The notes: generated by a model from the sequence alone, not told the origin. 64,000 nucleotides of DNA from an uncultured Actinomycetes bacterium (GCA_963771385.1 CAVYTE010000012.1:145877-209876), one strand, 5' to 3'; numbered from the stretch's first letter, positions 8,117 through 54,869 are shown. Numbers and translations are program-made.

Positions 8117-8169
8117 ACCGGGCTGGTTCCCGCCCACGGTCCGGGCTGGCATTAGGCTTGCTCCTGCCC

Positions 8170-8991
8170 ATGACCCCAGGCGCGGAACGCGAGGTGGCCG
8201 TGCTGGCCGTCGGAGCCGATCCCGGCGACCCGCAGGGATGCACGGTCGAGCTGGCCGACGACCTGCTCGGCGCCCTCGCCCACCTGTCCGACGGCGGCAT
8301 CGACGTCGTGCTCACGGCGCTCGAGTTGCCCGACGCCTCGGGTCCGGACATCGTCCGTTCGCTCCGGGAGCGCGCGCCGGACGTTCCGGTGATCGCCGTG
8401 ACGACATCGGAAGCGAACATCCGGGAAGCGCTCGGGGCGGGCGCGCGCGATGCGTTGCCGGCGGACTCCGGCACCGATCTGCTCGGGCGGGTGTTGCGGT
8501 ACGCCGCCGAGCTCGCCCGCCTCGAGGGGGACCTCGAGCGGCATCAGCTGGTCGACGAGCCGACCGGGCTGGTCGCCACCGAGGGGTTCCGGCTGCTCGC
8601 GGCCCATCACCTCCGCCTGGCCGATCGCTCGAAGTCTCCGGTGGTGCTCGTGTTCATCCGGTTGGACGATCTCGGCGAACCGCGCGGTGGAGCCGCGATC
8701 ACCGAGGCCGCGTCGTTGCTGCGTGCGGCCGTCCGGGCCTCGGACGTGGTCGCGCGCACGGGCCCGGGGGTCTTCTCCGTGTTGCTCGCCGGGGCCGGTT
8801 CGGGAACCGAGTCCCTCGTCCTGACGCGGGTGGTCGAGGCGGTGGCCGACCACAACGCCCGGAACGGGCGCTCGCGGGGCCCCGCCCTGTCGGTCGGCGC
8901 CGCCGTGTACGACCCGGAGCACCCCGTCGGCCTCGACACGTTGATCGTGCAGGCCGACCGGCAGATGCGGCGGCCCTGGAGCGAGCCGTGA
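8170..8991 (+). CDS. Receiver (REC) plus GGDEF-like protein, both domains degenerate
   Basis: 3' part of ORF 7663..8991 from ATG 8170. The REC-like segment IDVVLTALELPDASG has Ala where the phospho-Asp is expected (by-eye alignment to DlvllDlxMPgmdG). The GGDEF fold is recognisable (DEPTGLV..RTGPGVFSVLL) but the GGDEF motif reads GPGVF. Confidence 0.75.
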   Translation: MTPGAEREVAVLAVGADPGDPQGCTVELADDLLGALAHLSDGGIDVVLTALELPDASGPDIVRSLRERAPDVPVIAVTTSEANIREALGAGARDALPADSGTDLLGRVLRYAAELARLEGDLERHQLVDEPTGLVATEGFRLLAAHHLRLADRSKSPVVLVFIRLDDLGEPRGGAAITEAASLLRAAVRASDVVARTGPGVFSVLLAGAGSGTESLVLTRVVEAVADHNARNGRSRGPALSVGAAVYDPEHPVGLDTLIVQADRQMRRPWSEP

Positions 8992-13840: not shown

Positions 13841-14651
13841 GTGCGCCGCCCGCTCACCTCCGTCACCCTCATCGCGTTCGTCGCGATCGTCTCGCTCGCC
13901 GCGTGCACCTCGGACGACGAAGGGACGTCGGACCCGACGGCAAGCGGACCAACGGCGTCTGGATCGAACACCGGGAGCGCGCCACCCACCGGACCGTCGA
14001 CCGGGAGCGCCACACCGAGCGCGAGCGAGGAACCGGCGCCGGAACTCCAACTGCCGGCCGACGCACCCAGCTCGGTCGACGACTCCGCCGACGTCGCGCT
14101 GATCGAGGCCGGGGATCACTCGGTGCTCATCCCACCGGGGGCCGAGGACACGATCGCGATCCGTCAGACGACCCCCGACGATCCGATCGACCAGATCGCC
14201 GTGGCGTGGCGGCGCGGCTCCGACCCGTTCGCCCCCGAGGTCGGGTTCGTCGTGTGGCAGCGTTCCGATGCAGGACGACGACGCCGGCTGGCGAGCCGTC
14301 TACGCGTTCACCGACCGGCCGAGCGCGGGCGTCCTCGGCATCCGCGTCGTTCCCGCCGACCTCACCGGGGACGGCGTCGACGACCTGCTCACCGAGGAGC
14401 AGCGGGGCGGGAGCGGAGCCTGCGCCACCTGGCGGGTGATCGCCTCGGCCGCCGGGGGTGCGGCGGAGATCTACCGGCGCGAGGGCTGCGACACGGAGAT
14501 CTCGGCCGTGGACGGGGCGCTCGAGATCCGAGAGGCCGTCTTCGAGCCGGGCGACCCGCACTGCTGCCCGACCGCGTACCGGACCACCGTGCTCGAGTGG
14601 GACGGCCAGGCGTGGGCGGAGGTCTCCACCGAGGTCGAGCCCGCCCGCTAG
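13841..14651 (+). pseudogene. Lipoprotein of unknown function, one frameshift as sequenced
   Basis: MRRPLTSVTLIAFVAIVSLAAC (lipobox LAAC) followed by a Ser/Thr/Pro-rich linker. The C-terminal part (DLTGDGVDDLL, paired Cys) continues in ORF 14268..14651 after a break near 14265. It shares a frame with the next gene, which is why the ORF track shows one 1,934-aa ORF. Confidence 0.6.
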
Positions 14652-14770
14652 GCGGCGGGGACCGGGCCCCGGCCCGGCCGGACCGGTCGCCAACTCCGTG
14701 CGCCGAACGGCTTACGTCGCCCCACCCACACGCCGATACATCGAACGGTCCCAGCATCCGATCGTTCGAG

Positions 14771-17700
14771 ATGAAGGCGGGAAGTGGCTTGAGCGTTCCC
14801 CGCGGCGCCCAGCGCATGGCGCTCATCGTGCTCGCATTCGTGCTGGCCGCGGCGGCATTCGGCGCGTTCCAGCAGGCGGGCAAGGCGAGCCATGCCCTCG
14901 AGGCTGAGGCCACCGCCTCGGCCGAGCGCGCCGCGGCAGCGGTCGGAGATGCCCTCGTCCCCGAGGACCTCGCCGGGCCGGTGAGCGGCGAGCGCTACCA
15001 GTCGCTCTCGTCCGTCGTGAACGCGGGGCTCGTCGGTCCGGACGACTCCGTCACCGTCCTCAACAGCGAGGCCGTCGTCGTCTTCGCTCAGGACCGAGAG
15101 ACCATTGGACTGAAGGAGTCGCGGGCCAAGGTCGCCCGCGTCCTGTCGGCCGGGACGCAGACGGAGCTGGGCGCCGGGACGTTCAGCGTCTTCGTCCCCG
15201 TCACCGTCGACGGGCCGTCCGACATCGCGGTCGTCGACGTCGCCGGTCCGTCCGATGCGATCGAGGCCGCTCGAGGGCCATGGATCGTCGTCGCGATCGC
15301 CGCGGGCATCCTCGCGCTGCTCGTGCTCGTGTACGCGTTCGCCCAGAACGGATCGCGGGCCGCCGGGTTCGGCGACGCCATCAGTCCCTCGCGGGTGCTC
15401 GACATCGAACGCCGGCACGAGAAGGAGATGGCGGGTCTGGAGAAGACGATCGAGCGGGCGAAGGCCGATGAGGCCGGCGTCCGCAAGGAGCTCGAGAAGG
15501 TCGCCGAGGACCTGACCGCGCACAAGAAGGTATTGCGGGAGCTCGACGAGGCCGTCAACAAGACGGAGGCGCGTGCCGCCGAGGCGGAGGGGAAGCTCGC
15601 CGATACCACCGCACGCATCGCCGAATCGCAGACGCGCGCCGACCACGCCGAGAAGGGCGAGAGCGAGGCGCGAGCCAGGATCACGGCGGCCGAGTCGCGT
15701 GCTCGGGACGCGGAACGGCAGACCGCGGAGGCCAACGCGAGAGCGAGGCAGGCCGAGGAGTGGGCCGAGGATCTGGCCGCGCTCGGCGACGACCTCGAGC
15801 GGGCCGGGTCGGGCAAGGACGAGGAGTTCAAGCAGCTCCGCAACTCGCTGGTGGAGGCCAAACGCCAGGCCGCGGTCGCGCGGGACGCGAAGCGCGAGCT
15901 CGCGGACCGCGTCGCGACCCTCGAGACGACAAACCGGACGCTCGAGGCCGAACGGGAGACGCTCGCGGCGGAGCGCAGCGCGCTCGCCGGGGAACGGCAG
16001 GCGCTCGTCGCGGAACGCGAGTCGCTCGAGCAGGCGCGTGGCTCCGCCGAGGGGGAAGCCGCGGCCACACGTGAGGAGCTGCAGCACGCGCAGCAGCAGC
16101 TCGAACACGCGGTCGAGACCTCCAAGTCGCAACTGGCAACGGCACGGCGCGAGCTCGAGGAGGGTGGTGCCGAGCTCGCCGCGGCGCGGAGCGAGCTCGA
16201 GGACGCCCGCGCGCGAGAGGCGGAGATGAGCGTTCGCGTCGCGGAAGCCAAGGCCGAGGCGGAGCGGTCCAGGGGGGAGGTCGAGCGGGCCAGGGCGGAC
16301 GCCGATCGCGCCGCTACCGAGATCGCGGCGGCCAGGCTGGCCGAACAGGCGAAGAGCGCGCAACTCGCAGATGTGAGCGACCGATCCTCATCGCTCCAAC
16401 GCCAGGTCGACGAGGCCGCCGAACAGCTCCGTGAGCAGCAGGAGCGAGCCGGTGCGGCCGAGGCGAAGGTGGTCGATCTCTTCCGTCAGGTGCAGGCGCT
16501 CGAGCAGCGGCCGGACCTCAGCGCCGAGATGGAAGCGGCCATCTCCGAGACCGCCTCACTGCGGACCTCGCTCTCGGCCGCGAACGAGCGAGCGGAGGAG
16601 CTGGAGAGGGAGCTCGGGTCCACGCGCTCGGAGATGGAGGTGGCGCAGCTCGCCGGGGCCGAGGTCGCGGATCGACTGAACGAGCAACGCACCCGTGCGG
16701 ATCGAGCGGAAGCCGAGGTTGCCGAGCTCACGCAGGAGGCGGCGGAGCTCGCCGGCGTGATCGCCGAACTCGAGGCCCGGCCGGACCTGACGACGGACCT
16801 CGACACCGCGCGGGATGAGCGGAACGCGCTCGGGGCTCACCTGGAGACCGCGTCGTCCGAGCTGTCCGCGGCACGGGCGGAGCTCCTCGTCGCCCGACGA
16901 GATGCGGAAATCGTGAACACCGAGCTCGAGGCGGCCCGCGCCGAGGTCGAGGCGCGCGCGCGGCGGATCGAAGAGCTCGAGGCCCGGCCGGACCTGACGG
17001 CGGAGCTCGAGGCGGCCCGCGCCGAGGTCGGATCGGGCAGGCAGCGGATCGACGAGCTCGAGGCTCGCCCCGACCTCAGCGCGGACCTCGAGTCCGCGAA
17101 GGACGAACGACGGGCGCTCGCGGCTCGACTGGAGGCGGCCACGAGCGAGCTCGATGCTGCTCGGCGCGACATCGTTGCGGCGCAGGGAGAAGCCGAGACG
17201 TTCAAGACCGACCTCGAGGCGGCACGAGCCGAGATCGGATCGGGCAGGCAGCGGATCGACGAGCTCGAGGCCCGCCCCGACCTCAGCGCGGACCTCGAGT
17301 CCGCGAAGGACGAACGACGGGCGCTCGCGGCTCGACTGGAGGCGGCCACGAGCGAGCTCGATGCTGCTCGGCGCGACATCGTTGCGGCGCAGGGAGAAGC
17401 CGAGACGTTCAAGACCGACCTCGAGGTGGCACGAGCCGAGATCGATGCGGTGCAAGGGGATCTCGAGGCGACACGTGCGGAGGCCCAGGTCGCGCGGGCC
17501 GAGCTCGAGGCGACCCGAGCCGAAGCCGGGACGTTCGAGTCCGACCTCGAGGCGACGCGGGCTGAAGCCGAGGCAGCGAAGACCGAGCTCGAGGCGACAC
17601 GAGCCGACGCGGATGTCGTGAACCGGGATCTCGACGCAGCACGCGCCGAGATCGAGACGGTCAAAGCCGATCTCGAAGCGATGCGAGCCACCGTCGGCGA

Positions 17701-19645
17701 GACCGAAGCCAACGAGCGAGCGCTCCACGACAAGCTCCGGTCGGCGCGAGAGAAGGCCGAAGCGCGCCGGCAGAAGAACGAGGGTCTCGTGGCGGAGCTC
17801 GACGCTGTCAACGCCGCCCTGGCGAGCGACCGGGCGGAGCTCGAGGCTGCCAACGCCGCGCTCGCGAGCGACCGGGCGGAGCTCGAGCGTGTCGCGAGTG
17901 AGCTGGCGACCGCGTCGACCGAGCTCGAGCGGACGAAGGACGATCTCGAGAACACCCGTGCCCTGGCCGGAAGGACCGAGGCGGATCAGCGCACGCTGGC
18001 GGCGGAGCTACGAACCACGGCCGAGGAGGCGGAGGCACGTCGACGCGAGGACAAGAGACTTCGCGCCGAGCTCGAGTCGAGGAAGGTGGAGGAGGCGCGA
18101 CTCGCCGCCGAGCTCGAAGCGCGGGGGGTGGAGGAGGCACGACTCGCCGACGAGCTCGAAGCGCGAGGTCTCGAGGAAGCTCGACTCGCCGCCGAGCTCG
18201 AGTCGAGGAGGGTGGAGGAGGCGCGGCTCGCCGCCGAGCTCGAAGCGCGGGGGGTGGAGGAGGCACGACTCGCCGACGAGCTCGAGAGCGGGCGGGTCGA
18301 GGTGGAACGGCTCCGGGCCGAGCTCGACGCGCGCCGGGTCGAGGAAGAGCGTCTCGGCGCCGAGTTCGAGACGGGGCGCGGTGAGGTGGAACGGCTCCGG
18401 ACCGAGCTCGAGGCCGGACGCGGGGAGGTGGAGCGGCTCCGCGCCGAGCTCGACGCACGGCGTGTCGAGGAGGAACGACTCGGCAGCGAGTTCGAGGCCG
18501 GGCGCGGGGAGGCGGAGCGGCTCCGCGCCGATCACGAGGCCGGCCGCGTCGAGCTGGACAACCTGCGAGCGGAACTGGAGCTCCAGCGAGCGGAGGCGGA
18601 CGGGCTTCGCGTCGAGTCCGAGAGCGCGCGAACGAGCGTCGAACGCCTCCGAGCCGAGAGCCTCGAGCTGCTGCAGGAGAAGGATCGACTCATCGAGCAC
18701 CTGCAGAGCTCGGAGTGGGAAGCCGGATCGGAACGCGCTCGCGCGGAGGAGCTCGCCCGGCGACAGGACACGCTCCAGGCGCACGCGGACGACGTCGCTC
18801 GGAAGGCGGCGGAGGAGGCCATGGCGGCCCGCAGCCGGCTCCTCGAGACGCAGGAAACGTTGGCTCGCTTCCAGAGCGAGCTCGAACAGGTCGCGACGAA
18901 CTCGGTGTCGGCCGGGGACATGGGCCTGGACGCCGACGGCGTCCAGGGGGTCGTCGACGCCATGTCGACGGATGCGAAACGCTCGCTCTCGGCCATCTTC
19001 GGGCTCGCACGGATGATGTCTTCACAGGGAGCACCCGATGAGGGGCGGATGCTCCAACAGCTCATGTCGCAGGCTCGCCGGATGGAGCACGCCCTCACCG
19101 ACATCCTCGACGCCGACCGCCTCGCCCGAGGGGAGGTCGTCCTCAAGCGGCGCAGCACCGAGATCGACACGCTCATCCGCCGCGTCGTGCGGGAGTTCCC
19201 GGTGACGGAGGGGCGTCAGGTCGAGGTGATCGCCGAGACCGCGACGATCCAGATCGATCCGGCGCGGCTCGAACGGCTCGTGGACGACCTCCTGTCCTCC
19301 GCGATGACGCGGACGCAGCGCAACGATCGTGTCGTCCTCCGCGTGGAACGGACCGACGACGGCGTGATGCTCGCGGTCGAGGGAGGCGCGGTCTCGGGGG
19401 TCGAGGTCGGACCGGCGGCGAGCTTCCTCGCCAAGCTGCACGGCGGGTGGACGTCGGCGGAGGCGCTGCCGGGCGGGCGCGGGGTCGCGCGCGTCTTCCT
19501 CCCGAGCGTCTGGGCGCCGGGAGGCGGGCCCGAAGCAGGAACCGCCTCGGAGGGTACCGCCGACGGCTCCGATCCGGCGATCCCGGCCCCGCCGGAGCCG
19601 GACGGCGAGAGCGAGCCAGCGGATCGAGCCGAGGCGACCGCCTAG
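14771..19645 (+). CDS. 1,624-aa membrane-anchored giant coiled-coil protein with a C-terminal histidine-less, degenerate histidine-kinase-like domain
   Basis: Uninterrupted frame from ATG 14771 (alternative ATG 14816). Two hydrophobic segments (residues ~16-33 and ~171-191) bracket a ~135-aa domain. About 1,150-1,200 residues of E/A/R/L-rich sequence with nested repeats follow. From 18962 the sequence is HisKA/HATPase_c-like (STDAKRSLSAIFGL, LVDDLLSSA, FLAKLHGGW) but lacks the H-box His and N-box Asn. Confidence 0.8.
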   Translation: MKAGSGLSVPRGAQRMALIVLAFVLAAAAFGAFQQAGKASHALEAEATASAERAAAAVGDALVPEDLAGPVSGERYQSLSSVVNAGLVGPDDSVTVLNSEAVVVFAQDRETIGLKESRAKVARVLSAGTQTELGAGTFSVFVPVTVDGPSDIAVVDVAGPSDAIEAARGPWIVVAIAAGILALLVLVYAFAQNGSRAAGFGDAISPSRVLDIERRHEKEMAGLEKTIERAKADEAGVRKELEKVAEDLTAHKKVLRELDEAVNKTEARAAEAEGKLADTTARIAESQTRADHAEKGESEARARITAAESRARDAERQTAEANARARQAEEWAEDLAALGDDLERAGSGKDEEFKQLRNSLVEAKRQAAVARDAKRELADRVATLETTNRTLEAERETLAAERSALAGERQALVAERESLEQARGSAEGEAAATREELQHAQQQLEHAVETSKSQLATARRELEEGGAELAAARSELEDARAREAEMSVRVAEAKAEAERSRGEVERARADADRAATEIAAARLAEQAKSAQLADVSDRSSSLQRQVDEAAEQLREQQERAGAAEAKVVDLFRQVQALEQRPDLSAEMEAAISETASLRTSLSAANERAEELERELGSTRSEMEVAQLAGAEVADRLNEQRTRADRAEAEVAELTQEAAELAGVIAELEARPDLTTDLDTARDERNALGAHLETASSELSAARAELLVARRDAEIVNTELEAARAEVEARARRIEELEARPDLTAELEAARAEVGSGRQRIDELEARPDLSADLESAKDERRALAARLEAATSELDAARRDIVAAQGEAETFKTDLEAARAEIGSGRQRIDELEARPDLSADLESAKDERRALAARLEAATSELDAARRDIVAAQGEAETFKTDLEVARAEIDAVQGDLEATRAEAQVARAELEATRAEAGTFESDLEATRAEAEAAKTELEATRADADVVNRDLDAARAEIETVKADLEAMRATVGETEANERALHDKLRSAREKAEARRQKNEGLVAELDAVNAALASDRAELEAANAALASDRAELERVASELATASTELERTKDDLENTRALAGRTEADQRTLAAELRTTAEEAEARRREDKRLRAELESRKVEEARLAAELEARGVEEARLADELEARGLEEARLAAELESRRVEEARLAAELEARGVEEARLADELESGRVEVERLRAELDARRVEEERLGAEFETGRGEVERLRTELEAGRGEVERLRAELDARRVEEERLGSEFEAGRGEAERLRADHEAGRVELDNLRAELELQRAEADGLRVESESARTSVERLRAESLELLQEKDRLIEHLQSSEWEAGSERARAEELARRQDTLQAHADDVARKAAEEAMAARSRLLETQETLARFQSELEQVATNSVSAGDMGLDADGVQGVVDAMSTDAKRSLSAIFGLARMMSSQGAPDEGRMLQQLMSQARRMEHALTDILDADRLARGEVVLKRRSTEIDTLIRRVVREFPVTEGRQVEVIAETATIQIDPARLERLVDDLLSSAMTRTQRNDRVVLRVERTDDGVMLAVEGGAVSGVEVGPAASFLAKLHGGWTSAEALPGGRGVARVFLPSVWAPGGGPEAGTASEGTADGSDPAIPAPPEPDGESEPADRAEATA
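16493..17454 (+). repeat. In-frame long tandem repeats (69-aa / 207-bp unit) inside the giant gene
   Basis: The motif LE(A/Q)RPDL recurs with R codons at 16508, 16778, 16985, 17066 and 17273. Unit 17041-17247 is repeated at 17248-17444 with 2 mismatches in my base-by-base comparison. Confidence 0.85.
18068..18613 (+). repeat. 13 in-frame tandem copies of a 42-bp (14-aa) unit ELExRxVEEARLAx
   Basis: Units start at 18068, 18110, 18152 and so on up to 18572. Units 2 and 5 are identical, and units 1/4, 7/10 and 8/11 are near-identical, giving a 126-bp higher-order period. Confidence 0.85.
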
Positions 19646-21921
19646 ACCATCACGGCGGTGCTTCGGCGCCGTCCGGTCTTCTGCACGACGATCGACGCGG
19701 GGAACTGGTCCTTGATGCGCTCCGCGTGAGTGATCACGAACAACTGGTGGAACCGACCCGCCAACATCCCGAGCGCCCGGACCATCAGGTCCTTGCGCTC
19801 CTCGTCGAGCGAACCGAGCACCTCGTCGAGCACCATCAACCCGACGTCGGCACCGGAGACGCGCGACAGGTGCGTGGAGATGGCGACGCGGAGCGCGAGG
19901 TTCGCGAGGTCGATCTCCGAGCCCGAGAACCGATCGATCGGGAAGTACGCGTCACCGTCCGCGATCCGGATCTCGAGGCTCTCCTCGTCCACGCGCAGGT
20001 CGTCGTACGCGTGGTTCGTGAGCTCGCGGAACAACGCCTCGGCCTCCCGCGAGAGCTCGGGACCGACGCGCGCGACGAGATGATCGCGGAAGCCGTCCAG
20101 CAGCATCGCCACCCGTTCGACGTACCGGGCGTCGGAGCGGAGGTCATCGACGCGAGACGCGATCTCCTTGGCCTGTCCGAGCGCCCCGGCGAGCTCGCTC
20201 CGCTTGAGCTCCGCGCGTTGCAGCTCGACGCCCGCCGAGCGTTCGGCCTCGACGGCCTCCTCGACCGCCTGCTCGGCGCGTTGCAGGTCCTCGGTCGAGC
20301 GTGCGTGTTCGGCCGGGTCGAACGAGATCGCGCTCGCCTCGTCCGTCAGCTTCGCGAGCTCGTCCTCGAGCACCGCGATCCGAGCGTCCGCGGCGGACAG
20401 ATCCGTGCGGAGCTGCGCAGCGAAGCCCCGGTGCGCACCCAGCTCCGCGATCCGCTCCCCGAGGACCCGGGCCCGCTCGGCTCCTGCGCGGAGCTCGTTG
20501 ACGTCGGGCGGGACCCCCTCGAACGGCTGGGCGAGGGGCGCGAGCTCGGCGCGCATCGCGTCGAGCTGTTCCGTCAGCCGTGTGCGCTGCTCGCCGGCGC
20601 GCCGAGCGTCTTCGGCTGCCGAGATCGCCGCGTCGAGCGCCTTCACGACCTTCGCCAGCGCGGTCTGCGCACGTTCGGCGGAGGCCGACGCGTCGGCGGC
20701 CGTCCGTTTCGCGCTCGCGACCTCGGCCTTGCAATGCTTCACGTACGCGGCGAAGTCCTCGAGCGGCCGGCCGCACGTCGGACACGGTTGCGTCGGGTCG
20801 GCTTCGGCGGCCCGGTCCAGACGCGCCTGAGCCTCCTCGAGCGCCGAGACGCGTTGGTTGAGCTCGGCCTGCGCGCCCGCCGCCGCGGCCTGCGACTCCC
20901 CGTGCGCCGCCTGCGCCTGCCCGAGCGCGTCGAGGGCGGCCTCGGCTTCGACCTCGGGGAGCGAGATCAGCTGCAACTCCACCGCATGCGCCCGGTCGGT
21001 CGCCTCGACGAAACGCAGGCCGAGCCGCAGTCGCTCGTCCGCGTCGCCGAACCCGGCGAGCTCGGACTCGAGCTCCGGAAGTGCCTCGAGCTCGGCCGCG
21101 AGCCGCTCGAGCCGCTCCCCCAGCTCGTCGCGCTCGGTCAGCCGCTCGTCACGGCGCTCGACCTTCTCGGTCAGGAGCGCGCCGAGCCGCTCGATGCGTT
21201 CTCGCGCCCGGTCGATCCGCCGAAACGCCTCCGTGGCCGCCTTGGCCTGCTTCGTCGTCGCCTTCCGCGCCTCCTGCGCGTCCTTCGCGACGCGCTTCGC
21301 CTCGGCCGCCGCCTCCCCGGCGTCCTTCAGTTCCGCCTCGAGCGCGGCCAGATCCGGCACGGCCTCCTGGAGCTGGGCGGCGTTCTCCTTGGCCGCGCGG
21401 GCCTGCCGGCGGGCGGCGGTGCGCGCGTCGTCGACCGGCTTGATGCCGAGCAAGCGCAGCGCCATCTCGACGCGTTCGCCGCGCCGCAGGTCCGAGAACG
21501 CGTCGAGCTGCTTCTGCTCCGCGTACACGGAAGCTCGGAACACGCGCAGGTCCATGTGGAGGATCCTGGCGATCTCCTCGTTCACCTCGGTCGTCCCCGA
21601 CGCGAACGGGCGGGTCCCGACGAAGAGCTCGGCCTCCGGCGCATGGCCCCTCCCCTTGATGGCACGCCGGACCTCGAACTGCTGTCCGGCGTGCTCGAAC
21701 ACGAGACGCACCAGGCAGTCGGACAGGACGCCGTGGGTGCGGATCTCCTGTCGCTTGGTCCGCGCGGCCTCGGCCCCGTAGCAGGCGAACGCGATCGACT
21801 CCACGAGCGTGGACTTCCCGCTGCCGTTCTCGCCGAAGATCCCGATCACCCGAGCCGGCAGCTCGAGGTCGAGCTCCTCGAACACCCGGTAGTTGCGCAA
21901 CGACAGCTCGAGGACCCTCAC
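19642..21921 (-). CDS. sbcC: SbcC/Rad50-family DNA double-strand-break repair ATPase with zinc hook
   Basis: GTG 21921 within ORF 19642..22710. Walker A GENGSGKSTL, long coiled coil with central PCPTCGRPL hook, signature RFSGSE, Walker B LMVLDEVLGSLD, and ITH near the C-terminus. The start overlaps the sbcD stop. Confidence 0.9.
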   Translation of the reverse strand: MRVLELSLRNYRVFEELDLELPARVIGIFGENGSGKSTLVESIAFACYGAEAARTKRQEIRTHGVLSDCLVRLVFEHAGQQFEVRRAIKGRGHAPEAELFVGTRPFASGTTEVNEEIARILHMDLRVFRASVYAEQKQLDAFSDLRRGERVEMALRLLGIKPVDDARTAARRQARAAKENAAQLQEAVPDLAALEAELKDAGEAAAEAKRVAKDAQEARKATTKQAKAATEAFRRIDRARERIERLGALLTEKVERRDERLTERDELGERLERLAAELEALPELESELAGFGDADERLRLGLRFVEATDRAHAVELQLISLPEVEAEAALDALGQAQAAHGESQAAAAGAQAELNQRVSALEEAQARLDRAAEADPTQPCPTCGRPLEDFAAYVKHCKAEVASAKRTAADASASAERAQTALAKVVKALDAAISAAEDARRAGEQRTRLTEQLDAMRAELAPLAQPFEGVPPDVNELRAGAERARVLGERIAELGAHRGFAAQLRTDLSAADARIAVLEDELAKLTDEASAISFDPAEHARSTEDLQRAEQAVEEAVEAERSAGVELQRAELKRSELAGALGQAKEIASRVDDLRSDARYVERVAMLLDGFRDHLVARVGPELSREAEALFRELTNHAYDDLRVDEESLEIRIADGDAYFPIDRFSGSEIDLANLALRVAISTHLSRVSGADVGLMVLDEVLGSLDEERKDLMVRALGMLAGRFHQLFVITHAERIKDQFPASIVVQKTGRRRSTAVMV

Positions 21922-23050
21922 ACGGTCTCCCCGCGCGCGTCGGACAGGAACCCGGCGCCGATCGACACGACCCGCTCGCGTTCGAGCCCCGCCAGATCCT
22001 GCAGCTCGACGTACGACGTCCACTCCCGCTCGAGCGAACCGATCGTGGGACCGCCCTGAATCGCGAGCGCCTCGGCGCCGAAGTCCGGCTCGACCTGGAC
22101 CCAGATCGCGCTCGGGACGGCCTCGTGGAACTGCTCGCCCGCGATCTGTCGGAACGACGCCGGGTCCACCTCGTTCAGGTAGACCCGCACGATCGCGCGC
22201 TCGGGGATCCCGCGCGCCGCGCGCTCGACCGCGTCGACGAGCTCGCCGGCCGACAGCCCGGCGGCCGCGACGCTCACGGTGGCGAGCGGACGCTCGTGCG
22301 GGTTCTCCACGTGCTCGACCGTCCCCGCGTCGGTGTCGATCACGACGAGCCCCTTCGCGGCCTCGGGCGTGTCCGCGTACGAGAACGTGTCGGTCGAGCC
22401 CGCGTACCACGTGCGCTTCGAGACCTTCTGGTGCGCGTGGTAGTGGCCGAGCACGACGAGGTCGAACCCGCGTGTGGAACGCCGCCTCCTCGACCTCGAG
22501 CTCGTTGATGTCGGGATAGATCGCGAGCCGGCAGCGAGGTGAGCGCGACGTGCGCGAGCAGCAGGTTCGTGCGGTCGGGCCGGACCGCGGCGGCCGCGGC
22601 CGCGAGCTGCTCGCGAAGCTCCTCGACCGACAGCGTCTGCGGAACGGCGTGAACCGCGACCCCGGCCAGTTCGGTGGCCATCGCCTCCATGCGCCAGGCG
22701 AACGCGACACCGGGGAACACCCGCTCCAGCGCGTCGTACGGCGAGCCGGTTCCGCGGACGCGGGGCGTGTCGTGGTTGCCGCTGATCGCGGCGCCTCGCA
22801 GGCCGGCGTCGGTGAGACGTTGGAGCCCGCCGAGCACGTGCGCGAAGGTCCGATAGGTCGGCCTCGCGTGATCGAAGATGTCTCCGAGCCACAGGAAGCC
22901 GTCGGGTTCCTGCCGGATCGTCTCGTCCACCGCCCAGGCGAACGAGCGGAGGAAGTCCTCCTCGCGGAGGTTCCGGCCCTCGTCGTCCCGCAGGTGCGCG
23001 AGGTGCGTACGCCCGAGGTGGGCGTCCCCGAGCGCGACGAGCCTGCTCAT
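21918..23050 (-). pseudogene. sbcD: SbcD/Mre11-family nuclease, two frameshifts as sequenced
   Basis: Phosphoesterase motifs GDAHLG, WLGDIFDH and SGNHD (ORF 22340..23050), then IYPDINELEVEEAAF (third frame), then DLVVLGHYHAH (ORF 21918..22892). Breaks near 22525 and 22470. Confidence 0.85.
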
Positions 23051-23072
23051 CGGCGCGTGCGCGTGCCTCGCG

Positions 23073-24643
23073 TCACTCCGCGAACCCCTGCGCTCCGCCC
23101 GAGGGCCGCGGCGGCAACGGCGAGGGACCCTGTACCGACTTCAGGTACTCCTCGTAGAGGTAGACCATCGCCGGCAGGGCGAACGGCGAATCCAGGTTCG
23201 TCACGATCGCCTCGCCCGGCATGAGGGTCTGGATCTCGGGACCGAGGTCCGTGATGTCCTGCTTCGAGCTCCCGCGCAGGATCGTGCGGTCCTTCTCGTC
23301 GGCGAGCCCGAGGATGAAGAACGTGTTGAACTGCGACAGCAGCTCGTCGTCGATCAGCTTCGGCTGCTGGCTGACCGCGCACAGGCCCGACCTTGAACTT
23401 CCGCCCCTCCCGCGCCACCCGGGGGAAGACGTTCTCGTCCGAGCGCGTCGCGCGCGAGAGCACGCGCTGGGCCTCCTCCAGCGCGATCGAGCGTCGGTGG
23501 CAGGGCGGCGAACCGCTCGCGGTCGTCCAGGAAGACCGAGCCGTACGCGTCGAGCACGCGCCGGGTGATGACCGATGCGACGAGGATCTCCTCCATGGAC
23601 GACAGACCGCTCGTGTCGACGAGCACCGAGTAGCCGTCCATCAGCTCGTCGACGATGCGCTCGGACAGCGACGGCTGGGACGGATCGCGCGAGATGCACG
23701 GCATGTCCAAGATCCGCTGGGCGCGACGCTGGATCACCTGGAGGGTGCTCGTCGCGACGCCCGAGCTGCTCGGCGAGGTCGCTCACGTCCTGTTCCTCGC
23801 CCACGCGAACGATCCACTCCTCGTGGAAGAAGCGGATCAACCGGTAGATCGCGTCCTCCTGCGGGTGGCTCCAGTCGTATGCCGTCTGCAGGTCGCCCAG
23901 CGTGAGCTCGCCGAGCGAGAGGCGGAGCGCGGTGGCCCCGGCGCCGGCCGCTCGCGTCGCGTAGACGCGCAGGCGGTCGGCGGCCCATGGGTGTTCGCGC
24001 AGGCCGCGGCGGATCCCGCTCCCACCTTCGAGGTACTCGCCGTGCGGGTCGAACAACAGGCACGCGTACCGGCCCTGCGAGGACAGGATCTGGCCCGCGA
24101 GCACCTTCATGAGGTTCGACTTGCCCATCCCGGTCGTGGCGAAGACCCCGACGTGCGACGTGAGCGTCTCGCCCTTGATGCCGACCTCGAGGTCGATCGT
24201 GTCTTCGCCCGACCGGAGCAGCCCGACCCGCAGGTCGCCCATCCGCTCGTGGAGGAAGGCGAAGTCCTGCGGCGTCGGCGCCGTGACCCGGGCGAACTGC
24301 GCGGGCAGCGACTTCGGCTTGCGGAACTCCCCCGCCGGGTCGATGTAGCCCAGCGGCTGGCACGTCGCCACCTTGTAGAGGCGCTGCTCCGGGTCGTGCA
24401 GCGTGTACGGGGAACCGGCGGCGTCGCCGGCCATGTACGCGCCGGCCGTGCGCTCGGGCCATCCCGGGATCGGAGGACTCCGAGCCGTACGCCACCTGGA
24501 TCACGCGGAACAGGAACCGGCGCGCGCGTTCGGCGTCCTCGGCCGACCAGCAGCTCACCGAGGAACAGGTCCGTCCCGTAGAAGGAGCGGAAGGTCGCCT
24601 CCAGGACGCTGCGGCCGAAGATCCGGCCCTTGTACGCGCTCAC
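23073..24643 (-). pseudogene. herA: HerA-type hexameric DNA helicase/translocase ATPase, about five frameshifts as sequenced
   Basis: Walker A HVGVFATTGMGKSNLM; LLFDPHGEY; C-terminal VSQQPKLIDDELLSQFNTFFILGL and PGEAIV. The pieces lie in ORFs 24107..24880, 23734..24558, 23073..24434, 23354..23737 and 23047..23463. The GTG start overlaps the nurA stop (GTGA). Confidence 0.8.
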
Positions 24644-25743
24644 CGGTTCAGGACCTCGTGGAAGTCCTGGAACAGCACCTCGATGTCGTCTTCCGACATG
24701 CCCCGCCGTGAGAGCGCCTCGCGGAAGGAGCGGCGAACGTCCACCACGTCGTAGCCGGTGACCCTCGCCGCCTGGTGGGCCCGCGCGAGGGGGTAGGGGT
24801 AGCCGACGAACGCGGGATCGTCGGCGAGCCCGGCGAGCCGACCGAGCACCTCTCCGCGGGGGCGGGCCCGTGCGCGACATCGACGCGGAACGCGAACGGA
24901 GCGGTCGGTGCCAGGTGCGCGACGAAGATGTCCCCGACGTACAGCCGCGCGAACACCGGATCGGTCGAGATCCGGGCGCTCCATGCCGACGCTCCCCGTT
25001 CGCGGTCGCCGCGACGTTTCAGCAACGTGACGAGCGGAGCGTTGCGACCCCAGTAGAGCGTGGAGGCCTTCACGACACCGGCGAGCGACACGCCGCGTTC
25101 GACGGCCTCCGCGTGGACGCGCCGGACCACGACGGCGGGAACGAGCGGCCCGCCGTGCAGCGAACCGTCCACCAGGACCAGATCGCCAGAGGCCGCTTCG
25201 CGGACCGTCCGAGCGACCTCGGCCCACTCGCCCCACTCACGGAGCGCGTCGACGGGCCGCGGCATCTCGGGCAACCGCTCGGGCTCCGCTGCCGCACAGC
25301 TCGCGCAGGACGGAGCGAGCGAGCTCGGCCATCTCCTCGGGGGGAAGCGCGCGGACCGAGAGCGGCGGCGTCTCCACCCGTTCGGTCACGCCGGCCTCGA
25401 ACCGCACGCGCGCGGCCCGGTACGCCGCCACCTGGAACGAACGACCGTCGGCGACCACGCACGACCCGCCGTCGACCGCCCAGACGCGGCCGGGATCGGC
25501 GGGCTCCACCGGGACCAGCTCGAACGCGTCGGGGTGGCCCTGGACCACGAGCGCCTCGTCGAGGGAGGCCTGGCCCTCCATCACCCGGATGTCCGAGCCG
25601 GGGCGCTCGAGCAGGTTCACGACGAAGGACGCGGCCTCGTCGAGCTGCCCGCGCTCGACGATGTCGAGGTTGAGCACGCCTGGGTCCGCGCTTCCGAGCA
25701 CGGCCGAAGCGTAGCGGAGGCTTCGGACAGGGCCCGGAAGCAC
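24640..25743 (-). pseudogene. nurA: NurA-family 5'-3' nuclease, two frameshifts as sequenced
   Basis: VWAVDGGSCVV, DLVLVDGSLHG, SLAGVVKAS and GYPYPLARAHQAARV spread over ORFs 25237..25743, 24648..25274 and 24640..25236. Breaks near 25290 and 24865. The GTG start follows GAGGAGGAAGG. Confidence 0.75.
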
Positions 25744-25792
25744 GCCGCCTTCCTCCTCGGGGTGGGCGACACGGCCCCTCCGTGTGGCCGAG

Positions 25793-25808
25793 TAGTCATT
25801 CGTGACTA
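25793..25808. promoter_or_regulatory. AT-rich inverted repeat TAGTCA-TTCG-TGACTA in the divergent nurA / 25900 intergenic region (candidate operator overlapping a -10-like ACTAAT)
   Basis: Perfect 6+6 bp inverted repeat read directly from the sequence. It is the only AT-rich patch in the 156-bp divergent spacer. Confidence 0.35.
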
Positions 25809-25899
25809 ATCACCCCTTCGGGGGACTCCACGTAGGCCGCTGACCTGCCGATACGACCCCTGACGCGCCAAGCCCGCGGTGTCGTGAGAGAGGAACGAG

Positions 25900-27132
25900 A
25901 TGGTGGGCTCCCTAGCCAGACGGCATCGCCGACCCCTCTGGGGGGCCCTGGCCTTCCTGCTGGTCGTCGCGATCGCCGTCTCCATGTACAGCGCGTCGAC
26001 GGCGAAGGACGCCGCGATCGCCGAGGCGGAGATCGACGCGAAGCTCACCGCACAGACGGAGCTCGCGACGTTGCTCGAGCCCCGCGACCTGGAAACACCG
26101 ATCTTCAACGAACGCGCCGACGAGCTCACCGCCCTCATCGACACGCAGATCACCTCCGTCAGTCGGATCGACGAGGTCCGGATCTTCTCCGCGATCGGAC
26201 GGATCCTCTACGCGGACGACCCGACGATCGTCGGGACGCGACCGTCCTACCTTCGTGAGCTGACCTTCGAGGTCGCGAACGGCGAGGCGCAGACGCATGC
26301 GCGCGGCTCCCTGCTCCAGACGTTCGTCCCGATCTGGATCTCCCCCGACGGCACGGTGGCCGTCGCGGAGATGTCGCAGGCGCTCGCACCGATCACCTCG
26401 GCGGCGGCGGCGGGATGGAACACGATCGCGCTGATCTGCGCGGTGCTCCTGCTCGGAGCCATCGTGATGATCGTCGTGACGAGCCTCGCGCAGCCAACGC
26501 AGCCTTCCAACCTGCCGGTCCACGTGTACGCGCCCGTGTCCGTCCCGTCCGGGGCGGAGGGGACCCAGGCGCCGGCGGTCGTGGCGGTGGACGCTCCGCT
26601 GAACCAGCAGCCCGGGTTCCGCGAGATCGACGAGCTGCGACGGACGGCCGAGAGCCGCGCCCGGGCCAGCGAGCAGGACCTCCGGGGCGTGCGCACGCAG
26701 CTGAAGGATGCGCTCGCCCAGGTCGCGCTGCTCGAGGAGGAGCTCACGATCCAGGGCACCGGCCAACAGGATTGCGAGGCACTGCGCGACCAGTTCCGCG
26801 AGTCGAGCGAGCGGCTGAACCTGATCGAGATGGAGAACACGGCGCTGCGCGAGCGGCTGCACCTGCGTGAGCAGGAGCTCGAGGAGGTGCGGGCGCGCCT
26901 GCGATCCTCGCAGACCGCGCCGGCGGGGATGAGCGAGCTGCGACAGCGCCTCGAAGGCGCGGAGGAACGCGCCTCACAGATGGCGAGCGAGATGAAACGG
27001 ATCGAGACGGAGCTCGACGACACGACGACCCGCCTCCACATGTCGAGCCTGACGGAAGCGCTCCGGGAAGCCGGACACGTCGACCCCGAGATGGAGGACC
27101 AGGACTCGCCGCCGATCGTGGTGGATCGGTAG
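25900..27132 (+). CDS. Membrane protein: TM, sensor-like ectodomain, TM, then ~200-aa coiled coil; paralogue of the N-terminal part of the giant protein
   Basis: ATG after GAGAGAGGAA. TM segments LWGALAFLLVVAIAVSMY and WNTIALICAVLLLGAIVMIVV. The ectodomain aligns by eye with the giant protein (VRIFSAIGRILYADD / VTVLNSEAVVVFAQD; FVPIWISPDGTVAVAEM / FVPVTVDGPSDIAVVDV). Confidence 0.7.
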   Translation: MVGSLARRHRRPLWGALAFLLVVAIAVSMYSASTAKDAAIAEAEIDAKLTAQTELATLLEPRDLETPIFNERADELTALIDTQITSVSRIDEVRIFSAIGRILYADDPTIVGTRPSYLRELTFEVANGEAQTHARGSLLQTFVPIWISPDGTVAVAEMSQALAPITSAAAAGWNTIALICAVLLLGAIVMIVVTSLAQPTQPSNLPVHVYAPVSVPSGAEGTQAPAVVAVDAPLNQQPGFREIDELRRTAESRARASEQDLRGVRTQLKDALAQVALLEEELTIQGTGQQDCEALRDQFRESSERLNLIEMENTALRERLHLREQELEEVRARLRSSQTAPAGMSELRQRLEGAEERASQMASEMKRIETELDDTTTRLHMSSLTEALREAGHVDPEMEDQDSPPIVVDR

Positions 27133-27172
27133 CGGTCGATGAACGAACCCGAGGAAGCGTGGTGAGCAGGCG

Positions 27173-28726
27173 ATGGCCGACACGATCGCGATGATGCAGG
27201 GCCGCGAAGCGAGCGAACCGGGCGACCGGGCGACCGAGGACGGCGGCCTCATCAGCCGCGTCTCGGCCGCCGGGTACCAGGTCGCGCAGGCGGTCGACGG
27301 ACTCGAGCAGGCGGTTGGACTGCTCCGCGCCGCCGAGGAGCTGGCTCGAGACGCGGACGCACGCCGCGGCGTCGCAGAGCAGCGGCTCGCGGGCGCGCAG
27401 ACCGAGGTCGCCGAGCTCACCGACATGCTCACGATCGCCCGCGCCGCGCAGACCGACACGGACGAACGCGCACGCGCGGCAGAGCAGCGGCTCGCGACCT
27501 TGCAGGGCGAGATCGAACAGCTGACGGACATGGTCCGGGTCGCCCGCGCCGCCCAGGCAGACGCGGACGAACGCGCACGCGCCGCGGACCAGCGGTTCGC
27601 CGGCGTCCGCGGGGAGATCGAGGAGCTCACCGGGTTGGTCGCCGCGGCACGCGCCGCCCAGGCCGACGCGGACGAACGCGCACGCGCGGCCGACCAGCGG
27701 TTCGCCGGCGTCCGCGGGGAGATCGAGGAGCTCACCGGGTTGGTCACCGCGGCACGCGCCGCGCAGGCCGAGTCCGACGAGCGCGCCCGGCTGGCCGACG
27801 AGCAGGCGCGGCTCTCCGACGAGCGCGCCCGGCTGGCCGAGGACCGCTTCGAGCGGGTGTCCGACCGAACCACGGCGATGGAGCTCGCCCTCGGCGATCT
27901 CGAGGACCGCTGGCGCTCCGCCGAGACGACCCCGCAGGTCACGCTGGTGGGCGAACGTGACGAGCTGCAGGAGGCGGTCGCGGCGGAGATCCGCCGGCCG
28001 CTGACCTCGATCCTCGGGCTCACGCTCGCCCTGAAGCAGGCGGACGTGAAGGCGAACGACGGCAAGCACATGGTGCGCCAGCTGGGGACGAACGCGAAGC
28101 GCCTGGAGCGGCTCGTCGAGCAGATGCTCGACCTCGACAAGATCGCGAACGGCACGTACGAGCCCAAGCGACGCCGCTCCGACCTGGCGGCGCTCGTCGG
28201 TCGCGTCGCCGAGGAGACGCCCGACATCGCGAACCGCGACCTGAAGATCGCCGGCGAGCACGTGGCGATCGAGGTCGACCCCGGCCTCACCGAGCAGATG
28301 GTCGAGACGCTGCTGTCCAACGCCGGTCGCCGGACCGCGCCGGGAGGGAAGATCTGGATCACGGTCGTCCCCGAAGCGGACGGGGCGGTCATCGCGGTCG
28401 ACGACGCCAGCGCCGATGCGCTGCCGGCGATGCCGAGCGACAGGGAAGCGGCCGGCGCTCGGTCGCAGCGGGCGCGGGCCTCCGGCCTCCCGCTCCTCTC
28501 CCGTCTGGCCGAGCTGCACGGCGGCCGGGCGTGGGTCGAGGAGCGCGAGGGGGGCGGTGCGTCGTTCCGGGTCTTCCTTCCCGGCGGGTCCTCGAGCGAG
28601 TCGGAGGTCACCGCGGTCGACCTGATCGAAGACGTCGACGAGCTGCCGTTCGAAGCCGATCGGGTCGAGGGGGCGCTCCGCGAGCTGTCGAGCTTCGACG
28701 ACCTGTCCGGCGGGGTCGCGATCTAG
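27173..28726 (+). CDS. Cytoplasmic coiled-coil protein with a histidine-less histidine-kinase-like C-terminal domain; paralogue of the C-terminal part of the giant protein
   Basis: 35-aa repeats are followed by AAEIRRPLTSILGLTLAL, an H-box with Ala at the His position. Then LLSNAGRRTAPGGKIWI, a degenerate G1 box (DDASAD), and SGLPLLSRLAELHGGRAWVEE..FRVFLP. Confidence 0.75.
   Translation: MADTIAMMQGREASEPGDRATEDGGLISRVSAAGYQVAQAVDGLEQAVGLLRAAEELARDADARRGVAEQRLAGAQTEVAELTDMLTIARAAQTDTDERARAAEQRLATLQGEIEQLTDMVRVARAAQADADERARAADQRFAGVRGEIEELTGLVAAARAAQADADERARAADQRFAGVRGEIEELTGLVTAARAAQAESDERARLADEQARLSDERARLAEDRFERVSDRTTAMELALGDLEDRWRSAETTPQVTLVGERDELQEAVAAEIRRPLTSILGLTLALKQADVKANDGKHMVRQLGTNAKRLERLVEQMLDLDKIANGTYEPKRRRSDLAALVGRVAEETPDIANRDLKIAGEHVAIEVDPGLTEQMVETLLSNAGRRTAPGGKIWITVVPEADGAVIAVDDASADALPAMPSDREAAGARSQRARASGLPLLSRLAELHGGRAWVEEREGGGASFRVFLPGGSSSESEVTAVDLIEDVDELPFEADRVEGALRELSSFDDLSGGVAI
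27350..27769 (+). repeat. Four in-frame tandem copies of a 105-bp (35-aa, five-heptad) unit
   Basis: Units start at 27350, 27455, 27560 and 27665 (D[AT]DERARAA[ED]QR[LF]A..EI[E]ELT..ARAAQA). The last two units differ at only a few bases. Confidence 0.8.
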
Positions 28727-36893: not shown

Positions 36894-36921
36894 GGCCGGG
36901 ATGGTAGGTGTACCCGCCGAC

Positions 36922-50329: not shown

Positions 50330-50439
50330 GGGGAAGGGCCTTTCCTACCGAACGCCCTGATGGGATGTCAACCGTGCCCGCTCGTGAAGCCCGTTGCAAT
50401 CACCCTCGGCCACGCACGGACCAGCCTTGAGCGAGCGGG

Positions 50440-54808: not shown

Positions 54809-54869
54809 GTCCGAAGGATACGGGCGGCGCGCGACATCCACGCACGCGTCCGCGGGTCAGGCGCTCGGG

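Follow-up and report, generated by a model that had tools for sequence, protein, structure and literature searches.

In archaea such as Sulfolobus and Pyrococcus, the genes encoding HerA, Mre11, Rad50 and NurA are found together in a single cluster (herA-mre11-rad50-nurA) for the resection of DNA ends at double-strand breaks, and a bacterial NurA-HerA machine has been characterized from Deinococcus radiodurans (7F6D, 7WRW; PMC9960219). The locus described here occupies positions 13,841 to 28,726 of a 64,000-nucleotide stretch of DNA from an uncultured Actinomycetes bacterium (GCA_963771385.1 CAVYTE010000012.1:145877-209876; this whole stretch is termed 'the window' below). The same four gene families are clustered there as a repair cassette, and the genes on either side of that cassette encode members of one family of membrane-anchored, coiled-coil proteins that resemble sensor histidine kinases and are devoid of the phospho-acceptor histidine. 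The locus, with its new pseudo-kinase family and its conserved arrangement, is real; the adjacency of family and cassette is tentatively best explained as one ancestral juxtaposition that was kept by descent, with a functional coupling between the two plausible but less likely.

The cassette shares with its archaeal counterpart the CxxC hook of Rad50 and the phosphoesterase motifs of Mre11, and differs from it in its host (a bacterium of the Actinomycetota) and in its order (nurA-herA-mre11-rad50). When compared with the Deinococcus system, the HerA protein of the window is of the other, archaeal-like type, whereas the 'type-2' cassettes of sister lineages (described below) are of the Deinococcus kind, and have NurA-HerA followed by SbcD-SbcC, as noted for Oceanithermus (PMC5448004). 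No kinase-like partner or neighbour of NurA-HerA was found in the literature searched.

The flanking family also has described analogues, one of them being DivL of Caulobacter crescentus, which acts by protein binding rather than by phosphotransfer (PMC4211667). DivL retains the DHp/CA fold and the N-box and has its histidine replaced, as does the kinase-like head of one of the two subfamilies described here (type S). However, DivL has a tyrosine at the histidine position and cytoplasmic PAS domains, and binds DivK~P; in the present family, alanine, threonine, serine, glycine or valine stands in place of the histidine, the PDC domain is extracytoplasmic, the coiled coil is very long and no response regulator is linked, so that the likeness is a generic one at the level of histidine kinases, and orthology is unsupported. 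A second histidine-less protein of this kind, PsmA of Streptomyces venezuelae, is a component of the polarisome, and the role suggested for it is that of a scaffold or partner within a protein assembly (PMC12963549). PsmA is a cytoplasmic protein of 1350 amino acids (PAS-PAS, a histidine kinase-like domain, an intrinsically disordered region and REC) that binds DivIVA and is found only in Streptomycetaceae; unlike the family described here, it is without a transmembrane (TM)/PDC module, a long coiled coil or a link to a repair cassette. Finally, the sensor kinases CitA, DcuS, WalK and KinD have in common with the family the topology of TM, PDC, TM, helical stalk and DHp/CA, whereas the family lacks the phospho-acceptor histidine and a cognate regulator, possesses a coiled coil 10-50 times longer, and has (in type S) its two halves in separate genes. 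The literature searched contained no such family of histidine-less, membrane-anchored, coiled-coil sensor-kinase derivatives with a conserved promoter motif of its own; bacterial histidine pseudokinases, of which few are known, thereby gain a further family.

The window has a G+C content of approximately 71%, which makes raw lists of open reading frames noisy, and genes were therefore called by third-position GC and homology. The closest relative of the locus, L001 (from the metagenome-assembled genome MFD00962.bin.2.293; 95.7% DNA identity to the window), supplied the lengths of the cassette proteins. The features are as follows.

13841..14651, plus strand: conserved lipoprotein, its N-terminus signal/lipobox-like and its C-terminal domain containing ...GDPHCCPT... 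(from translations; frame broken near 14200-14270)
14732..14738, plus strand: GCCGATA motif, 33 nt upstream of the giant's ATG
14771..19645, plus strand: F-type giant coiled-coil protein, 1624 aa (paralogy by BLASTP; neighbour-joining tree)
19642..21921, minus strand: Rad50/SbcC-like ABC ATPase, 759 aa in L001, with a CPTC zinc-hook motif (Pfam, NCBIfam)
21918..23050, minus strand: Mre11/SbcD-like phosphoesterase, 376 aa in L001 (Pfam Metallophos, motifs)
23073..24643, minus strand: HerA, archaeal-like type 1, 521 aa in L001 (DUF87, 4D2I match)
24640..25743, minus strand: NurA nuclease, 367 aa in L001 (Pfam NurA on the L001 orthologue)
25793..25853, plus strand: conserved spacer element, approximately 62 nt in three blocks (comparison of divergent-type loci)
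25900..27132, plus strand: S-type N-terminal half, 410 aa (AlphaFold2 model, Foldseek)
27173..28726, plus strand: S-type C-terminal half, 517 aa (HisKA, HATPase_c, alignment to DivL and HK853)

The lipoprotein gene and the giant are thus followed by the four cassette genes, which cluster in a single direction on the minus strand (window 19642-25743; rad50/sbcC, mre11/sbcD, herA and nurA in map order), and then by the 410-aa and 517-aa genes. At the convergent junction the plus-strand giant ends at 19645 and the minus-strand rad50/sbcC gene at 19642, the two stops overlapping in CTAG. At the divergent junction, nurA starts with GTG at 25743 and the 410-aa gene with ATG at 25900, leaving a spacer of 156 bp; further along, 40 nt separate the stop of the 410-aa gene (27132) from the start of the 517-aa gene (27173). 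An earlier description of the locus (the sequence-only reading) had given the same gene order and strands, the CTAG overlap at 19642-19645 and the 156-bp spacer, all of which were confirmed. The lipoprotein and the giant are two genes, the true start of the latter being the ATG at 14771, and their common frame is accidental.

Histidine-less sensor-kinase derivatives on both flanks

The 410-aa protein displays a TM segment, an extracytoplasmic PDC/Cache-like domain, a second TM segment and a coiled coil (AlphaFold2 model, pLDDT 82); the domain between the two TM helices consists of a long N-terminal helix and a PAS-like alpha/beta sheet. Foldseek matched this model to the sensor domains of CitA, TlpQ, DcuS, WalK and KinD (E ~1e-4 to 1e-3; TM-score ~0.6 to CitA), and no Pfam or NCBIfam family model matched the protein. 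The 517-aa protein, by comparison, was recognized by the Pfam models HisKA (4.1e-8) and HATPase_c (7e-11), and its layout is that of a coiled coil, a DHp domain, a CA domain and an acidic tail (LRELSSFDDLS), corresponding in the AlphaFold2 model to a long helix, a DHp hairpin at residues 262-326, an alpha/beta CA domain and a short conserved tail helix. The best match of its head in the PDB was the Caulobacter pseudo-kinase DivL (4Q20, E=7.6e-12). The existence of a natural fusion of both halves (P0098) indicates that the two proteins form a split sensor-kinase-like protein. At one locus (L165, positions 7668-8627) only the TM-PDC-coiled-coil half is found (319 aa, E=4e-27) and the kinase-like half is missing, and the two halves can therefore be lost separately. 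The family has few members: when 1.84 billion representative proteins were searched exhaustively, 206 representative clusters matched the sensor half at E<=0.001, with lengths of either around 350-450 aa or 830-1270 aa.

The phospho-acceptor position within the H-box of the 517-aa protein (AAEIRRPLTSI) is occupied by an alanine that aligns with the tyrosine of DivL (SYELRTPLT) and with the histidine of HK853, and all S members carry alanine, threonine, serine, glycine or valine there. A census of H-boxes found every cassette-linked member to be histidine-less, and found the non-linked relatives that carry SH[DE]LRTPL to be ordinary kinases; the designation 'pseudo-kinase' proposed from the sequence is borne out by this census and by the alignments, in which the canonical histidine is replaced in every family member. 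Other parts of the S head have been retained, including the N-box asparagine, the G1 aspartate and part of G2 (N383, D411 and G438), each of which is invariant, as well as a conserved histidine within the motif A(L/M)(K/R)H(A/T)D, located approximately 17 residues downstream (as ALKHAD). The G1 box of the window protein reads DDASAD, its glycines lost, where relatives have DDTGPE, and the ATP lid of the S head is disordered in the AlphaFold2 model and poorly conserved. No response regulator (Response_reg) was found beside the family genes (collectively, the module) in L001, L002, L161 or L162.

Many S members, though not all, end in an acidic-hydrophobic sequence (for example LRELSSFDDLSDELAI, SDEVVL or DETVAI), and the tail contains conserved serines; this tail has the look of a docking peptide. 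In the 517-aa protein, residues ~495-517, LRELSSFDDLSD(E)LAI, are predicted to form a short helix.

The giant on the opposite flank is built as a TM segment, a PDC-like domain, a second TM segment, a coiled coil of approximately 1170 aa and a degenerate DHp/CA head. Its N-terminal module matched the 410-aa protein (26% identity, E=8e-8) and its C-terminal module the 517-aa protein (30% identity, E=3e-22) by BLASTP, in agreement with the earlier proposal that both neighbours of the cassette belong to one family; the kinase-like domain of the giant, which was not detected by Pfam, was assigned from the latter match. The giant's H-box reads TDAKRSLSAIFGL, its N-box asparagine is lost (LLSSAMTRT) and its lid is shortened. 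Fused proteins of approximately 1000 aa from other lineages similarly display a degenerate H-box (LDAKKSLSRILGL), an N-box that is often without its asparagine and a short lid, and F members carry LDAKKSLS or TDAKRSLS at the H-box. In a neighbour-joining tree of C-terminal domains, the giants and the fused proteins form one clade (F) and the 517-aa type another (S), with histidine-containing kinases as outgroup. The identity of only 26-30%, together with these separate clades, indicates that the flanking genes are old paralogues rather than products of a recent duplication, and they belong to a small family, as yet without annotation, that descends from sensor histidine kinases of the membrane. 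The arrangement F-cassette-S is common to nine loci (L001, L002, L008, L009, L015, L016, L024, L161 and L162).

Recent tandem duplications lie inside the giant gene (window 17006-17444 and 18062-18558); they comprise 2.1 copies of a 207-bp unit, at 97% identity, and arrays of 42, 84 and 126 bp. The length of the coiled coil is evolving quickly, and has grown to ~1170 aa by tandem duplication.

Repair cassette, its exchange at one slot and the upstream element

The product of rad50/sbcC (93% identical to that of L001) matched Pfam AAA_23 (1.4e-18), SMC_N and SbcC_Walker_B, and contains the hook motif QPCPTCGRPL, while in the mre11/sbcD product, which matched Pfam Metallophos, the motifs GDAHLG, GDIFD, GNHD and GHYH are readable. 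The names sbcC and sbcD used in the sequence-only reading are supported by Pfam as to the type of gene; the best NCBIfam scores, however, go to archaeal Rad50 families and to Mre11_Sulfo, respectively, in each case below the cut-off. The HerA protein of the window matched DUF87 (1.4e-18) and the Sulfolobus HerA structure 4D2I (E=1e-21) and possesses the Walker A sequence TTGMGKSN, and its best NCBIfam families are again archaeal and below cut-off. Since all such scores fall far below the equivalog cut-offs, the cassette of the window forms a bacterial branch of its own and is not a recent import from archaea. NurA was recognized through its L001 orthologue (Pfam PF09376, 1.4e-9, 38 bits against a cut-off of 21), to which the window sequence is 96% identical by tblastn; the NurA fragments of the window gave no Pfam match themselves because of breaks in their frame. 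A search with the type-1 HerA returned more than 2000 matches, and identity is 80% or higher in every one of the best 120 clusters. In uncultured soil Actinomycetota, the archaeal-like NurA-HerA-Mre11-Rad50 cassette is both abundant and highly conserved.

Five genes of the window (mre11, herA, nurA, the lipoprotein gene and a downstream acyl-CoA dehydrogenase (ACAD) gene) are each split by such frame breaks. Comparison with L001, in which the four cassette genes are intact (759, 376, 521 and 367 aa), identified nine single-base indels at positions 22470-25289: two insertions in mre11 (at 22470 and 22523), five insertions in herA, and one deletion and one insertion in nurA. L001 bears an indel of its own, in its kinase-like gene (L001 position 11173). 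Once the indels were removed, the ratio of nonsynonymous to synonymous substitution rates (dN/dS) between the window and L001 was 0.064 for Mre11, 0.051 for HerA and 0.115 for NurA; the corresponding values were 0.23 (Rad50), 0.145 (410-aa gene), 0.19 (517-aa gene) and 0.17 (C-terminal part of the giant). All of the measured genes of the locus are under purifying selection. Because values of 0.05-0.12 were obtained against an intact relative, the best reading of the breaks in the cassette genes is that they are errors of long-read assembly rather than decay, and pseudogenization of mre11, herA and nurA was rejected on the same values. The cassette can accordingly be described as an intact, strongly constrained, archaeal-like NurA-HerA-Mre11-Rad50 set, predicted from its component families to process DNA ends. 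Of the indels, which cluster at 22470-25289 and lie also at 14200-14270 and 29365, most add a G after a C, and two follow GATC; this pattern may reflect a systematic basecalling error at a modified motif.

Across the relatives of the locus, three forms of the cassette were found to occupy the same slot, in two orientations: the archaeal-like type 1, and two Deinococcus-like forms, types 2a and 2b. In L006 and others a Deinococcus-type cassette sits in the same position (HerA versus 7F6D, E=1.5e-139), and the type-1 and type-2 HerA proteins display no significant similarity to one another by BLASTP. The type-2b form is approximately 46% identical to type 2a and is inverted relative to it, running in the same direction as a fused F gene situated just downstream of sbcC. 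The exchange is precise: the sequences of L005 (type 1) and L006 (type 2a) run in parallel, at 74-82% DNA identity, as far as the stop of the lipoprotein gene, and collinearity resumes exactly at the sequence TAGTCA, so that only the four-gene cassette differs between them. Precise swapping of archaeal-like and Deinococcus-type cassettes at one slot is a clear example from nature of one machine displaced by another that is analogous but not orthologous. In L010 and L018, an archaeal-like cassette has likewise been exchanged in situ for one of Deinococcus type, with collinear flanks.

The boundary at TAGTCA corresponds exactly to the start of a conserved element in the divergent spacer, which has the form TAGTCATTC ... 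C-GGGGGACT ... 19-20 nt ... GCCGATA, and in which the blocks TAGTCAT, C-GGGGGACT and GCCGATA are invariant. One copy of the element is present per divergent locus, in a fixed orientation; it is retained beside the module gene through a cassette swap, and is absent upstream of nurA in loci that are module-less or co-directional. An inverted repeat in this spacer, noted previously from the sequence, is present as the perfect palindrome TAGTCA-ttcg-TGACTA at 25793-25808; it was rejected as a conserved feature, as only its first arm is invariant. The element gave no Rfam match at E<=1 and no covariation, with just a 5-bp hairpin predicted, and an RNA element was for that reason dropped in favour of a DNA site. 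Neither a sigma-70 promoter nor an intrinsic terminator was found in the spacer, and on reading it no LexA SOS box or PafBC RecA-NDp motif was seen. A role for TAGTCAT as the start of nurA was also considered, and was rejected as a general one: it holds by open reading frame calling in the type-2a loci L006 and L025, and is off-frame or interrupted by stops in most type-1 loci.

The GCCGATA block is found upstream of both paralogues, preceding the giant and also the fused genes of co-directional loci, and almost every gene of the family has it upstream. By itself it is not enriched in the window (5 copies against 3.75 expected), and two of those five copies lie upstream of the two paralogues. 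A longer motif, GGACT-N19-20-GCCGATA, gave approximately 36 strict matches in a census by regular expression across 2.4 Mb of fetched loci, and all but one or two of them are located 20-60 nt upstream of the start of a family gene. Because the motif precedes both paralogues, they share one regulatory signal.

Adjacency by descent or by functional coupling

The neighbourhood comparison proposed with the sequence-only reading was conducted on 78 loci, fetched with the family alignment from one-genome-per-species contigs and supplemented by metagenome loci; flanks were annotated by tblastn, profile searches and Pfam, and counts were made from tblastn and H-box signatures. All true relatives of the family derive from metagenome-assembled genomes of uncultured Actinomycetota. 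Among approximately 44 assessable loci, 42 distinct histidine-less family loci adjoin a NurA-HerA-SbcD-SbcC cassette, one (L020) is without a cassette and one (L163) retains a truncated remnant, whereas no NurA or HerA was found near any of ~31 ordinary histidine-containing kinase loci from the same scan. Loci L032-L039, L055 and L057, which have no cassette, carry the canonical SH[D/E]LRTPL and are ordinary kinases. At L163 (9135-9770) the cassette has been deleted, leaving an N-terminal remnant of NurA (69% identity) and an intact spacer element, with DDE transposase fragments approximately 4 kb downstream. One subclade of the family is located elsewhere: at L020 (6800-12080), a long S-type member (~1400-1700 aa depending on its start) stands away from any cassette, and its neighbours are genes for a bactofilin, a membrane protein of the RDD type, a protein with an MshEN domain and a trypsin-like protease.

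Both architectures (divergent and co-directional) were found in a single syntenic frame of the chromosome, conserved throughout a clade of uncultured Actinomycetota, which runs aconitase - (thioesterase) - lipoprotein - [cassette] - module - (ACAD) - thiolase, with the ACAD gene present in most loci. The lipoprotein stands beside the cassette in 21 loci of both architectures (by tblastn), and also in the module-less L164 and in L165; it tracks the frame, persists where the module is absent and was rejected as a part of the module. The protein gave no Pfam match at E<0.01 in the window or in L006, the only signal being a faint precomputed match to Lipoprotein_21 (LppP/LprE, PF14041) on the L164 orthologue.

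The reverse test, which asked how often the cassette carries the module, covered type 2 by scanning metagenomes with its HerA, which gave over 580 relatives, the best 80 loci being examined, and type 1 by a sample of four contexts. For type-2 cassettes, the module was present in two of those best 80 loci, the two closest. For type 1, L164 contains the full frame and cassette with the module absent, and L166 and L167 contain the cassette in other contexts, likewise without the module; L164 nests within the module-bearing clade in trees of both HerA and Mre11, which suggests that its module was lost secondarily. Thus, each partner that is found in another context comes without the other (the cassette in L166 and L167, the family in L020). 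Near type-1 cassettes that lack the full module, an AbiEii-like gene (a weak match; L165, 16570-16854) and a reverse transcriptase (L166, 19003-19887) lie a few kb away.

The earlier suggestion that such a neighbourhood defines a new system therefore survives in part: the neighbourhood is conserved, but all pairs reside in one syntenic frame, and both types of cassette are common without the module. Because every co-occurrence falls within that frame, a single ancestral juxtaposition is implied, and this juxtaposition, kept by descent and requiring no coupling, is the account that we favour, while holding it tentatively. A comparable situation is that of nurA-herA in Thermus, which lies in a conserved context with, according to its authors, no apparent relation to DNA metabolism (PMC5448004). 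In such an account, the family proteins would be dimeric, membrane-anchored pseudo-kinases, in which the PDC domain would sense an extracytoplasmic cue, the coiled-coil stalk would relay it, and the head, being unable to phosphorylate a histidine, would act by protein-protein contact in the manner of DivL and PsmA; expression would proceed from a dedicated promoter/operator (GGACT-N19-20-GCCGATA) common to both paralogues, and the mirror image would reflect the retention of both paralogues on either side of the cassette slot. By analogy with those two proteins, the family is inferred to serve as a non-phosphorylating sensor or scaffold. Several points weigh against this account: (i) the linkage has survived three forms of cassette and an inversion of it, with exact edges to the swaps, and selection for adjacency predicts the same; (ii) the ACAD, NUDIX and thioesterase genes come and go within the frame, while cassette and module remain together; (iii) the fused gene follows sbcC by only ~100-200 bp in the co-directional architecture, and in the divergent architecture the module's element lies within ~50 nt of nurA, so that promoters may be shared; and (iv) no client protein has been identified for the proposed scaffold. 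In addition, all trees are neighbour-joining trees without bootstrap or other support values, and the sampling is of contigs from metagenome-assembled genomes rather than of whole genomes.

The principal competing explanation, which is possible and at the same time somewhat doubtful, is that the Mre11-Rad50/HerA-NurA machine has the F and S proteins as its accessory subunits or regulators. They would serve as a membrane tether or as a switch for envelope cues (desiccation, wall damage, or DNA passing in or out) by way of the head and acidic tail, and transcription would play no part. ATPases of the HerA superfamily frequently work as DNA translocases coupled to the membrane, which accords with such a role. 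The proportion of family loci beside a cassette (42 of ~44, against none of the ~31 ordinary kinase loci), the persistence of adjacency across two essentially unrelated HerA types, two orientations and exact swaps, the presence of both old paralogues at the cassette, the common divergent spacer in one architecture and the short co-directional spacer in the other, and the docking-peptide-like tail of many S proteins all argue in its favour, as do the reported transjugation defects of a Thermus hepA mutant and of a mutant of a second NurA homologue (PMC5448004). Against it stand the restriction of all co-occurrences to one frame with clearly unrelated metabolic genes; the fact that the pair was never seen relocated together, while cassettes without module and family members without cassette both occur; cassette protein lengths that are the same with and without the module; an S tail and an S-protein tree that do not follow cassette type (L006 groups with L005 and L031); and the solubility of Thermus HepA (PMC5448004). 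A more specific form of this explanation, which we consider unlikely, holds that F and S proteins are signal-controlled tethers, in which a dead sensor kinase, its PDC domain reading a cue from the envelope, would position or activate the DNA-end-processing motor at the membrane through a stalk of up to ~170 nm, with no phosphorylation or transcription step. Were the proteins tethers, break repair could be coupled to desiccation or wall damage, or DNA crossing the envelope could be processed, and the exchange of cassettes would show that the tether recognizes the process or a common feature rather than one protein. Any true coupling would be the first case in bacteria of a machine for double-strand-break resection being linked directly to a sensor of the envelope, and would bear on the old idea of HerA-type motors working at the membrane. 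As a caution, strong neighbourhood conservation coexists here with block-wide synteny, and adjacency alone overstates the functional link.

Three further explanations are considerably less probable than either descent or coupling. It is improbable that the S head is an active kinase of a non-canonical kind, one that would bind ATP and phosphorylate another residue (the ALKHAD histidine, or a serine or threonine in the tail or a partner, as in PDK or RsbW-type kinases) and signal to an unlinked regulator in control of the cassette or of other genes: the invariant N383, D411 and G438, the conserved histidine of A(L/M)(K/R)H(A/T)D and the conserved tail serines speak for it, whereas no response regulator is found in the locus, the G1 box of the window (DDASAD) is without glycine, the ATP lid is disordered and poorly conserved, and F heads usually lack the N-box asparagine and show a shorter lid. 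Defence systems repeatedly include HerA, SMC-like ATPases and nucleases, and the locus might be read as an anti-phage or anti-plasmid defence island in which a membrane sensor triggers an SMC-like/HerA/nuclease effector on incoming linear DNA. That reading, to which weak generic PADLOC matches (to the LmuB, HerA and JetC models) and the AbiEii-like and reverse transcriptase genes near cassettes at two loci lend some weight, is highly improbable: there is no system-specific match in PADLOC-DB (NurA, Mre11 and the TM half give none), the core syntenic frame lies among housekeeping genes, mobile-element hallmarks do not flank the locus, and HerA conservation of at least 80% in the best 120 clusters, with dN/dS of 0.05-0.12, is the opposite of what fast-evolving defence genes display. 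Recent segmental duplication or chance, which would render the mirror image meaningless and had been raised as coincidental duplication in the sequence-only reading, is scarcely credible; the flanks are indeed paralogous, and paralogues come to lie near each other most simply by duplicating locally, but their identity of 26-30%, their differing H-box and N-box signatures, their separation into two subfamilies (each of which occurs alone beside cassettes elsewhere), the retention of F-cassette-S order across nine loci and the purifying selection on all genes speak against it.

Other genes of the window

Approximately 7 kb from the module, a gene for a PD-(D/E)XK-superfamily nuclease (window 35958-37373, minus strand) is syntenic, along with an HTH_20/DUF2087 gene, in L001, L002 and L165. 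Across the whole 64-kb window, no tRNA, rRNA or Rfam family was found at threshold. Two further minus-strand genes encode an M23 peptidase with a PcsB-like coiled coil (49172-50344) and a 1069-aa protein that combines a zinc ribbon, an adenylate/guanylate cyclase domain, AAA_16 and TPR repeats (51647-54856).

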